This document shows positions 13,895 to 16,658 of a stretch of DNA of 33,473 nucleotides, piece after piece. How positions within the stretch are numbered: position 1 is the stretch's first letter; every line of letters starts with the position of its first letter. The notes under the pieces are model-generated. The model ran no database searches. It saw only the letters and a program-made list of their open reading frames with translations, and was not told the origin of the DNA. This DNA is from Reclinomonas americana ATCC 50394 (taxonomy: Eukaryota), in NCBI GenBank assembly GCA_048213135.1, contig PS015773.1:1588-35060 (forward strand). Direction: 5' to 3'. A program made the position numbers and the translations under genes.

Positions 13895-16658
13895 ATCAGG
13901 CCTGTTCGATCGCGCCTTCTGGGAGGACAAGGATATGGTGGTGAATGCACTGGACAACATCCAGGCTCGCCTGTACGTCGACGACCGCTGCGTGCAGTTC
14001 CGCAAGCCGCTCGTTGAGGCCGGCACGGAGGCCGTCAAGTGCAACTGGTGTGTGCATGCATTTTCCTGATGTTTTTTCCCTTATCCTTCGCTCACGAAGC
14101 CTTGGTGTGCACAGCTGTGTGAGTACACTGGCTGTTTGGGAGTGTGTCCAGCGTGTCGTGGCTGGCAGTGTCTCACACCACCACTTTCTCGTGTCCGCTG
14201 TGCAGATTGTGATTCCGGGCTTCTCGGTCAACTACGGCTTCCATCGCGAGATTGACCCGCCAAAGGCCAAGAAGTGCACTGTGACCAACTTCCCTGTGCG
14301 TAACTTGCTTGTGTGGGTGTAACTTGATTGTGCGTAACATGCTGAATTTCGCTGTTGTCTTGTGCGCAGTACGTGCGTCATTGAATAACCCCGGCACCTG
14401 TATTACCAAGCGAACGACTCACATTTGTTTTTTCCCCTCCTTGTTCTTGATTGCATACAGCTGGTGAGTTGGCCCAAGTGTTGCGCGCTGGTCCTGTCAC
14501 GTGTTGCTTAGTTAACCCTTCCACTCGCAGATCGAGCACTGCATCCAGTACGCGCGCGAGATCACGTTCCAGAAGCTGTTTGTGGACTGCCCGGAGGCTG
14601 TGGCCGAGTACCGCAACAACCCGCAGGCCTTCCTGGACAAGGTCAAGGAGATGCCGGAGACGGAGAAAGTCGATGTTGCGTTGAGGCGATCTGTATGTCG
14701 GAGTCGACGGGAAGATACTGATGTGGTGGTGCGTCGCAGGTTGCCCGCAAGCTGGCTGGCATTCTGAGCGCCGAGAACCGCTGCGCCTCTCTGGAGGACT
14801 GCGTGGCGTGGGCGCGCAACCTGTACGAGGAGGAGTTTGTACACTCGGCGTTCCAGTGGCACTCGCTGTACCCTCGTGATGCCAAGAACCGTGACGGTGA
14901 GTGCATTGCCTGCCATGTGAGTTGATGACTTGCTTACTCGGGGCATTATTGCAGGCACGCCGTTCTGGGGTGGCGTCAAGACGTACCCGACGGAGCAGCG
15001 ATTCGACCCGGCAAACCCGCTGCACGTGCAGTTCCTGGTGCGCGACAATCTATTGTTGGCTTGTTGCAGTTGCCCTGCTCATCCCCGGTTGGTGCACAGG
15101 TGACGGCGACTGCGCTGCGCGCCAAGACTCTCGGCATTGCTGTGCCGTCGGAGTTCCGTCTGGATAGCCGCCGTGGAAAGGCGCTGGTGCTGGAGATCGC
15201 CTCGCGCGTCAACGTGAAGGCGTTCAGCAACTCGGCGGTTTGTAAAGCGTGTGGTGGTGGCGCGTGTGTGCCAAGTTCCTCACACCAGTGGGTGAATACG
15301 ATGAGCAGAAGGCATCGACCGACGGTGAGGACGAGTCGAACGTGTCGCTGGTGCAGGAGTTCGACCCGAACGCCGTGCTGAGCTCGCTCCCGTCGCCGAG
15401 CGACATCTCGCCGTCGGTGACCGCCGATGAGTTCGAGAAGGACAACGACCTCAACTACCACGTGGACTTCCTGATGGCCGTGTCCAACATTCGTGCCATC
15501 ATGTACCGCATCGACACGGTGGACCGCCTGAAGATCAAGCTCGTCGCCGGTCGTGTGATTCCGGCCATTGTGACGAGCACGGCTCTGATCTGCGGCTACG
15601 CGAGCTTTGAGATGCTGAAGGTGTGTGTGGATTTTCGGATGAGATTGCACTGAACTTGTCGGTTGGCTGACTGCTGGGTGCAGATCTGGTCTGGCCGGCC
15701 AAACTCGGCGATTCGCGAGTCGACGGTTAACCTCGGCACGCTGATGTTCACCGTGCAGGAGCCGATGGAGGCGCCGAAGGTGAGAGTGTCTATTGTGTGT
15801 GCCTGCTTTCTTCGGAGCGGTAGGGTGATGACTGATTGACGTGCTTTGTTCAACGTGCAGTGGAGCTACAAGGGTGCGAGTGGCGACCACACGTTCACGC
15901 TGTGGGACAGCGTGCATGTGGACGCGCGTGGTCTGACGCTGAAGCAGGTTTGTCGTTGGCGTCGCTCTCTTCGCTGTTGCATTGTGTCTGTCGCTCTCCT
16001 CGCGGTTGCTCTGTGTCTCTGTCACTCTCTTCGCTGCTGCATTGTGTTTCCGTCGCTCTCCTTGCTGTTGCTCTGTGTTTCTGTCGCTCTCCTCGCTGCT
16101 GCTCTTGTGTCTCTGTCGCTCTCCTTGCGGTTGCTCCGTGTCTCTGTCGCTCTCCTTGCGGTTGCTCCGTGTCTCTATCGCTCTCTTTGCTGTTGCTCCG
16201 TGTCTCTGTCGCTCTCCTCGCTGCTGCTCTGTGTCCCTGTCGCTCTTCTGCACACAGGCGTTCTCACCAATGCTATTCATTCCTGGCAGTTCTTGGACAA
16301 GATGAAGGCGGAGCAGGAGCTGAACATCGAGACAATCTCGGTGGTGCGACAGGACTACGTGGTGTGGTTTGGTGCTCGCGGGGCGCTGGACAAGCCGCTG
16401 CTTGAGCTCGTGGAGAATATCGTGAAGAAGAACAAGCTGCACGTGGACCCGTCTGGCATTATCGAGTTCCTGGTGTCGGCACCGTTGCGTAGTAGCCGTC
16501 GGCACCGCGCATGGTGAATCGATTTTGTCTCACTCACGCGCGCGTGGTGATGTTACTGCAGTGATGGCTCCGTGGTGAAGAAGCTGGATCAGGAGGGCAA
16601 GGAGTACGAGGAGGACGGACCGGAGCATCTGCCAAAGATCTTTGTGCGCGTGCACTGA
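10279..16658 (+). CDS. Divergent ubiquitin-like modifier-activating enzyme E1 (UBA1/UBA6 architecture), >20 introns
   Basis: The spliced product has the inactive adenylation domain (SGLNGVGAEVAKNIML, IGKNRAEA, ELNP) and FCCH (HGLQDGDTVSF). The active adenylation domain includes SRYDGQIAVFG, MVGAGALGCEYLK, TDMDTIEVSNLNRQFLFR and NALDNIQARLYVDDRCV. The catalytic Cys lies in KCTVTNFP-YL-IEHCIQYAR, followed by FEKDND and AGRVIPAIVTSTA and a C-terminal UFD (FTLWD). ATG at 10279, TGA at 16656-16658. Confidence 0.93.
13359..13893. repeat. (GT)n microsatellite in an E1 intron, interrupted by low-quality read tails and an N gap (13537-13690)
   Basis: GT tracts lie on both sides of the gap. The flanking E1 exons join in phase (..ATE G|LFDRAFW), so no exon appears to be missing. 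Confidence 0.85.
14115..14118 (+). other. Probable 4-nt microexon (CTGT) of the E1 gene
   Basis: Context cacag|CTGT|gtgagt with flanking introns of 67 and 87 nt, giving KCN-CC-IVIP. A single-intron alternative (KCN-WC-IVIP) also keeps frame. Confidence 0.6.
14370..14463 (+). other. Two tandem 3-nt microexons of the E1 gene: TAC (14370-14372) and CTG (14461-14463)
   Basis: Contexts gcgcag|TAC|gtgcgt and atacag|CTG|gtgagt; introns of 74, 88 and 67 nt. They restore the E1 spacing NFP-x-x-IEH. Confidence 0.85.
15961..16250. repeat. ~30-nt period minisatellite (consensus ~GTCGCTCTCCTCGCTGTTGCTCTGTGTCTCT), about 10 copies, in an E1 intron
   Basis: GTCGCTCTC recurs about every 30 nt between the donor at 15948 and the acceptor at 16289. 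Confidence 0.9.

Follow-up and report, generated by a model that had tools for sequence, protein, structure and literature searches.

How short can a coding exon be, and can a single codon be spliced in on its own? The question is raised by a stretch of 33,473 nucleotides (nt) from the eukaryote Reclinomonas americana ATCC 50394 (GenBank assembly GCA_048213135.1, contig PS015773.1), here called the window. Its forward strand carries a gene for a ubiquitin-activating enzyme E1 of the UBA1 type, in which the exon with the catalytic cysteine and the exon that starts the SCCH domain are separated by 235 nt. In tblastn alignments, the upstream exon ends on FP and the downstream exon begins on IEH, and two residues of the query are left over. 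The genomic sequence suggests that the corresponding residues are tyrosine and leucine, and that they are probably encoded by two real, constitutively included exons of three nucleotides each, TAC and CTG. The gene and the elements around its catalytic cysteine are the following.

10758..16517 (ends approximate), forward strand: UBA1-type E1 (ubiquitin-activating enzyme) gene with ~25-27 introns, identified by tblastn and spliced alignment to 26 relatives.
14206..14295, forward strand: Cys exon, ...KKCTVTNFP, ending TTCCCT; the Cys codon TGC lies at 14275-14277, and the exon aligns to the Cys motif of relatives.
14296..14369, forward strand: intron 1, 74 nt, GTGCGT..GCGCAG; donor 4.7 bits, acceptor 6.7 bits.
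14370..14372, forward strand: predicted 3-nt exon TAC (Tyr), rank 6 of 353 AG-NNN-GT sites.
14373..14460, forward strand: intron 2, 88 nt, GTGCGT..ATACAG, with a pyrimidine-rich 3' end; donor 4.8 bits, acceptor 10.5 bits.
14461..14463, forward strand: predicted 3-nt exon CTG (Leu), rank 1 of 353 AG-NNN-GT sites.
14464..14530, forward strand: intron 3, 67 nt, GTGAGT..TCGCAG; donor 10.5 bits, acceptor 11.9 bits.
14531..14674, forward strand: exon IEHCIQYAR..., start of the SCCH domain, first bases ATCGAG; Pfam UBA_E1_SCCH positions 2-51.

The E1 gene is recognizable along most of its length. Its exons, ~25 of them in frame and without internal stops, align along nearly the full length of the 26 relatives. 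Open reading frames (ORFs) of the exons match the Pfam families E1_4HB (E 4.3e-13), ThiF (E 1.1e-8) and UBA_E1_SCCH, the last in two exon ORFs. A conserved exon of 77 residues matches the solved chains of UBA1, UBA7 and UBA6 with a best E of 2.7e-18, and retrieves full-length proteins named ubiquitin-activating enzyme E1 by their sources; its best identity in the protein search (5.8-billion collection) is 62%. In searches of solved structures with other single exons, the 47-residue exon gave chance matches only and the 30-residue exon gave none. The C-terminal ubiquitin-fold domain has no Pfam match among ORFs of at least 75 residues, and the C-terminal exons align to the tail of the relatives. 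The C-x5-P motif of the catalytic cysteine is present as CTVTNFP, which aligns with the Cys motif of relatives. Downstream of the IEHCIQYAR exon, the donor GTTGCGTT at 14675 was chosen with 24 of 26 queries.

The distance between the Cys motif and the SCCH domain was read in a homologue set of 79 sequences, composed of 35 proteins and 44 loci from metagenomes and metatranscriptomes; the 44 loci share at most 68% identity in conserved exons and are mostly intron-free transcripts. A pattern that permits 0-8 residues between C-x5-P and I-x-H matched 41 of the 79 sequences, and all 41 have a spacer of exactly two residues. A looser pattern, applied to 29 of the 38 unmatched sequences, made 10 further relatives readable, again all with two residues. 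In the remaining 28 sequences, all of them fragments or loci broken up by introns, the motif was not found. The statement of an earlier note on this DNA that E1 enzymes have exactly two residues here thus holds in 51 of the 51 relatives with a readable motif.

The identity of the two residues varies among the relatives, with NA, HA, NQ, NK, NR, YQ, YL, HQ, SL, NL and other dipeptides. Tyrosine occupies the first position in YQ, YL, YR and YM, and YL itself is found in the relatives P0030 and P0034. Relatives that share with the window a cysteine after the histidine, in IEHCI or IDHCI, carry SL (L012 and L030) or NL (L015). Since YL, SL and NL are all seen in relatives, Tyr-Leu is an ordinary filling of the spacer. 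In the E1 of the window, a spacer of two residues requires the inclusion of both 3-nt exons.

The layout that the earlier note had described, in which TAC and CTG are set apart from the flanking exons and from each other by introns of 74, 88 and 67 nt, is exact, and every boundary reads GT..CAG. Both triplets are in frame, preceded by AG and followed by GT, and encode residues expected from homologues, as do coding microexons (15 nt or shorter). At neither of the two sites does AG abut GT in the manner of a recursive splice site; three bases lie between them.

The lengths of the introns were compared with those of homology-anchored introns from the E1 gene and from a ZNFX1-like gene on the reverse strand, each chosen by most queries. 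These 30 introns measure 58-96 nt, with a median of 69.5 nt. Therefore, introns of 74, 88 and 67 nt are typical, and undivided introns of 235 or 165 nt are not. The introns longer than 100 nt that we met have lengths of 598 nt (GT microsatellites around an assembly gap), 342 nt (a tandem array) and ~418 nt (microsatellites in an ARL2-like gene). Two others, of 154 nt in the E1 gene and 115 nt in a cathepsin C gene, can be divided into introns of typical length. In the 235-nt stretch, the sole repeat is a weak one of 15 nt, situated at the 5' end.

The splice sites were scored with donor and acceptor profiles built from 30 introns, 27 from the E1 and ZNFX1-like genes and three from the cathepsin C gene, from which the tested sites were excluded. 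The six tested sites score 4.7-11.9 bits, inside the leave-one-out range of true sites, whose medians are ~6-7 bits. The ranks given above refer to the full set of 353 AG-NNN-GT sites that the two strands of the window contain, ordered by the weaker of their two site scores. In 20,000 shuffles of the 235-nt interior that preserved dinucleotides and the outer site contexts, the best summed site score was 28.1 bits, in comparison with 32.4 bits for the real split, which none of the shuffles reached. Nor did any of the 20,000 shuffles restore the frame with every intron at 50-100 nt. The site pair around CTG was equalled in none of the shuffles by its weaker score and in two by the sum. The pair around TAC, given CTG and within 14296-14460, was equalled in 32 (weaker score) and 56 (sum) of the 20,000. 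In a set of 856 confidently coding codons from the window, TAC accounts for 28 of 31 tyrosine codons and CTG for 44 of 81 leucine codons, and both are the preferred codons.

Intron lengths, site scores, shuffles and codon choice together support the proposal that there are two single-codon exons, very strongly for CTG and moderately for TAC. On the sequence, CTG is very likely a real exon, and, once CTG is accepted, TAC is likely to be one as well.

Over its first ~48 nt, intron 1 consists of diverged copies, in tandem, of the end of the Cys exon and its donor. The repeated unit joins the final 9 nt of that exon to GTGCGT, and was reported by Tandem Repeats Finder (TRF) with a period of 15, 3.5 copies and a score of 43; positions 14287-14309 and 14321-14343 are 83% identical over 23 nt. 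The repeat hints at a local duplication at this exon boundary. It contains a second GTGCGT, at 14330, the use of which as a donor would meet a stop. The TAC exon with its surroundings, CAG TAC GTGCG (14367-14377), shares 10 of 11 bases with CAG TAC GCGCG (14546-14556), which encodes Q-Y-A-R in the downstream exon; the similarity is probably due to chance.

Other sources of the two residues were tried and rejected. Reading past the end of the Cys exon at 14295 hits a stop, and no in-frame codon before 14531 has an AG ahead of it, so that extension of neither exon supplies them. Among the GT-AG splits with one or two microexons, TAC plus CTG proved to be the sole one to restore 6 nt, even at a site-score threshold of 0.

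A custom protein-to-genome spliced aligner, run with 26 full-length E1 relatives with and without splice-site scores, divides the two exons, and several of its outcomes weigh against the inclusion of TAC or of both. With site scores and the intron penalty chosen, the aligner included CTG as an exon for all 26 queries, and with the same 26 queries it skipped TAC in favor of a 165-nt intron and a one-residue gap. Without site scores, it picked a single 235-nt intron with 16 of the 26 queries, an intron at 14311-14536 with six, and the TAC exon with four, all of which have tyrosine at this position. These outcomes show that TAC is the weaker half of the pair. The number of introns that the aligner chooses (one, two or three) varies with the penalty set for an intron, and its choice was not counted as decisive. 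To the same side of the balance belong the TAC sites themselves, with an acceptor of 6.7 bits, a donor of 4.8 bits, and a C instead of the usual G before GT. Furthermore, 143 of the 20,000 shuffles yield some frame-restoring split with internal sites of at least 4.8 bits when intron length is ignored; none of these 143 keeps every intron at 50-100 nt. The profiles were built from just 30 introns, picked by an aligner that demands GT-AG. The E1 diverges around its cysteine, with KK-C for the usual P-x-C and SVNY for TESY, and given this divergence the conserved spacing might not bind this E1.

The choice of the score-informed aligner is exactly what would be expected if CTG alone were an exon and TAC lay inside a 165-nt intron (14296-14460), leaving a spacer of one residue, FP-L-IEH, and the mediocre TAC sites fit this arrangement. 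We nevertheless consider it unlikely, as a one-residue spacer occurs in 0 of 51 relatives, a repeat-free intron of 165 nt would be an outlier beside anchored introns that all (30/30) measure 58-96 nt, a site as good as TAC arises so rarely in the shuffles, and TAC is the preferred tyrosine codon. The aligner without site scores favors instead a single intron of 235 nt with idle internal AG and GT pairs and an E1 without the two spacer residues. Such an intron would have valid outer sites (donor 4.7 and acceptor 11.9 bits) in an enzyme that is divergent near its cysteine, and longer introns, of 342-598 nt, do occur elsewhere in the window. Those introns, however, hold repeats or a gap, whereas the 235-nt stretch holds just the weak 15-nt repeat; no relative among the 51 lacks the spacer, CTG is the best acceptor-plus-donor pair of the 353, and no shuffle reaches the observed score. 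We regard the single intron as slightly less probable again.

One or both 3-nt exons could instead be facultative cassettes, and their regulated skipping would shorten the catalytic loop by one or two residues. That skipping keeps the frame, as the earlier note had remarked, is true by arithmetic alone, and skipping itself is hypothetical. Partial inclusion would be favored by the weaker sites of TAC, and a degree of alternative splicing is described for coding microexons of plants, with most inclusion values above 0.5 (PMC8831610). The invariance of the spacer in 51 of 51 relatives argues that shortened forms would be non-functional, and we hold regulated skipping to be very improbable. Least probable of all is that a decaying pseudogene or an assembly artefact accounts for the locus and makes its splice pattern meaningless. 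The window, which has a G+C content of ~57%, does contain two gaps of N, one of them inside the E1 gene (13537-13690), and the E1 is divergent; on the other side, the in-frame exons run without internal stops across the 26 relatives, the key motifs are intact, and the region 14206-14674 is free of N.

The two consecutive 3-nt exons, which remain our preferred explanation, may have a 4-nt companion upstream.

14115..14118, forward strand: candidate 4-nt exon CTGT, with cacAG before and GTGAGT after; its own sites score 3.8 and 3.7 bits.

Within 14046-14205, a length of 154 nt for the intron that precedes the Cys exon assumes an in-frame donor at 14052, which scores 0.6 bits. The donor at 14048 is much stronger, at 8.7 bits, but preserves the frame only when CTGT is spliced in, and the introns would then measure 67 and 87 nt. 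Either choice, 14048 with CTGT or 14052, adds two residues (WC or CC).

A second gene in the window requires exons of similar size. It encodes cathepsin C on the reverse strand, and its features bearing on exon size are listed here.

~27500-30550, reverse strand: cathepsin C gene, Pfam CathepsinC_exc, with 24-25 introns in ~1.45 kilobases (kb) of coding sequence.
30059..30069, reverse strand: 11-nt exon; flanking introns used with 25 and 29 of 41 queries.
29222..29244, reverse strand: 23-nt exon, VSYVSPI(R); flanking introns used with 36 and 39 of 41 queries.
29135..29144, reverse strand: 10-nt exon, (R)NQG, right before QCGSCYAF; used with 39 of 41 queries.
28125-28123, reverse strand: predicted 3-nt exon ATG, which supplies the end of the catalytic His codon (C|AT) and the first base of a Val codon (G|TC); rank 2 of 353.
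27854-27853, reverse strand: predicted 2-nt exon GG, first of a tandem pair; flanking introns used with 33 and 31 of 41 queries.
27763-27762, reverse strand: predicted 2-nt exon GG, second of the tandem pair; used with 31 of 41 queries.

The 41 queries are the full-length-like members of 150 cathepsin C relatives collected. One path through the gene has 24 introns of 58-89 nt, except for one of 115 nt, which another path splits into 56 and 68 nt. The internal exons of the first path measure 33, 97, 73, 11, 125, 119, 100, 147, 23, 10, 81, 58, 29, 113, 124, 67, 3, 44, 23, 2, 2, 36 and 24 nt. The ATG exon is placed as ...ACC AAT C, a 63-nt intron, ATG, a 64-nt intron, and TC GTG GTA.... Its inclusion yields the protein TN-H-V-VVIVGYG; without it, leucine replaces the histidine. 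In the relatives that match the motif (23 of 41), the residue after the histidine is A, G or S and the one after that is V, ahead of x-x-G-[YW]-G. The two introns flanking the ATG exon were used with 34 of 41 queries and lay outside the training set of the profiles. As the site ranked second of 353 is the ATG exon demanded by homology, the scoring blindly recovers a 3-nt exon.

The tandem GG exons stand in the context ...AAGAACAGCTG, a 62-nt intron, GG, an 89-nt intron, GG, a 75-nt intron, and ACTGCCTGG.... Together they produce NSW-G-TA-WGEDGFF, and the distance from NSW to WG is three residues in 22 of the 22 cathepsin C relatives that have the motif. The view that microexons are not specific to one gene is borne out by cathepsin C, which requires the 3-nt histidine exon, the tandem 2-nt exons, and the exons of 10, 11 and 23 nt. 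The caution about ascertainment bias that accompanied it in the earlier note was apt too, because random placement of introns predicts such exons and no link to active sites is needed.

This prediction follows from intron density. Cathepsin C has ~0.0166 introns per nt of coding sequence (~17 per kb), and E1 ~0.0086 per nt (~9 per kb; ~27 introns in ~3.15 kb). Under random intron placement, ~1.1 internal exons of 3 nt or shorter are expected in cathepsin C and ~0.7 in E1, and three and two are observed. The numbers suggest that the excess of tiny exons is at most mild, with some clustering of introns and no link to catalysis. We infer that the microexons represent the lower extreme of the exon lengths that a gene with a very high density of introns produces, rather than a device of the active site. 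Their location at active sites is likeliest an ascertainment effect of the very high intron density, since missing residues get noticed there. The upper end of intron density in sequenced genomes is given as ~6 per kb in PMC3488318. The densities of E1 and cathepsin C exceed this value, and two genes say little about the genome average. The ZNFX1-like gene, which has long exons and just ~18 introns of 60-96 nt, carries ~3 introns per kb, so that density differs about five-fold between neighboring genes.

We hypothesize the following course of splicing. The short (~60-95 nt) and dense introns are probably each recognized as a unit, by intron definition. Recognition across the intron would leave the length of the exon unconstrained. 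At a 3-nt exon, the 3'- and 5'-splice sites lie three nucleotides apart, and the factors bound to them would exclude each other. Both flanking introns could then hardly be occupied at once, and would be spliced out in succession. With the first of them gone, the 3-nt exon would be fused to an exon of normal size. The mature mRNA would encode FP-Y-L-IEH, in which the two-residue spacer between the Cys motif and the first SCCH helix is restored. In recursive splicing, a zero-length exon is formed by AG directly followed by GT. The course proposed here resembles it in that a 3'-splice site is closely followed by a 5'-splice site and that neighboring intron segments are removed stepwise. It differs in that three bases are retained at each junction and that the segments are ordinary short introns, not pieces of a very long one. 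Stepwise removal predicts ordered intermediates in nascent RNA.

Microexons of comparable size are known in other eukaryotes. Land plants have coding microexons of 1-15 nt, validated down to 1 nt in APC11 and VPS55, and in a rice transcript a microexon of 5 nt neighbors one of 12 nt (Yu et al. 2022, PMC8831610). Like those of the window, the plant microexons described there have canonical flanking sites, encode conserved residues and were missed by annotation. In contrast to the exons of the window, which are known from genomic sequence alone, the plant microexons in that report are backed by RNA sequencing (RNA-seq) and reverse-transcription PCR (RT-PCR) and are conserved across species. The introns of the window, at ~70 nt and very dense, are also unlike the plant setting (PMC8831610). 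Exons of 3 nt are reported from the dinoflagellate Amphidinium carterae and, as cited in the same article, from Drosophila, mouse and chicken (PMC12584245). The dinoflagellate thus shares with the window exons down to 3 nt in a protist, whereas its gene structures, as described there, differ from those of the window, in which genes alternate between strands and introns are ~70-nt GT-AG introns.

The neuronal microexon programmes of animals and the PRP-40-dependent microexons of Caenorhabditis elegans are regulated cassettes in contexts of long introns and exon definition (PMC8378409). They too are very small exons that challenge the splicing machinery, whereas the exons of the window are most likely included constitutively and a side effect of densely placed introns. 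We found no report of paired exons of 2 or 3 nt, or of "tandem microexons", in the open-access literature, which does not prove their absence. The exons of the window therefore probably belong to a known kind, the 1-3-nt microexons of plants, animals and a dinoflagellate, and are here unusually small, adjacent and frequent.

An origin of the dense introns from introners, transposons or other mobile introns was considered and is not supported: an all-versus-all comparison of 65 introns gave just six short matches of 12-18 nt, and the region 14250-14580 contains no inverted repeats. The commonest donor heptamer among these 65 introns, which come from three genes, is GTTGCGT, with nine occurrences and two more of GTTGCGC. 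It outnumbers GTGTGTG, GTGCGTG and GTGAGTT, and represents an unusual 5'-splice-site consensus.

The clearly long introns of the E1 gene are only the two of 342 and 598 nt. The former is filled by a 31-nt tandem array (9.3 copies, 84% matches) at 15961-16246. The latter contains the assembly gap at 13537-13690, which lies between long GT microsatellites (13340-13890) and hides the true length of the intron.

The window also contains the following genes.

600-2900, forward strand: gene of a TPR protein.
5389-6410, reverse strand: ARL2-like (Arf-family) gene; the first coding exon seen begins with GLLSLLRK right after an acceptor-like tctcag.
17076-23400, reverse strand: large ZNFX1-like gene with an AAA_11/AAA_12 helicase, a ZNFX1 domain and an RZ-type zinc finger.
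25226-26400, forward strand: EMC8/UPF0172 gene.

As the GLLSLLRK exon directly follows an acceptor, the start codon of the ARL2-like gene must sit farther upstream, in another exon. The first intron seen in this gene, of ~418 nt, is rich in GA and CA microsatellites. A 340-residue exon of the ZNFX1-like gene reached at most ~55% local identity in the protein search. An Rfam scan of the window gave no matches.

If the proposed structure is true, TAC and CTG are among the smallest possible exons for a whole codon, and they occur as a pair. An ordinary gene caller or RNA-seq aligner would give an E1 without two residues next to its active cysteine and a cathepsin C without its catalytic histidine. 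When annotation drops catalytic residues in this way, enzymes would be mis-scored as aberrant or dead. The window would offer a natural system for studying how a spliceosome copes with exons that fall short of the footprint of the factors at their two splice sites, and whether neighboring introns need a fixed order of removal. It is conceivable, although we hold it as a tentative and rather doubtful generalization, that exons of 2-4 nt, often in tandem, are routine in this organism, with ~9-17 introns per kb of coding sequence in its housekeeping genes. If so, R. americana would have a spliceosome without a practical lower limit of exon size, and the removal of adjacent introns would be obligatorily ordered and recursive-like.

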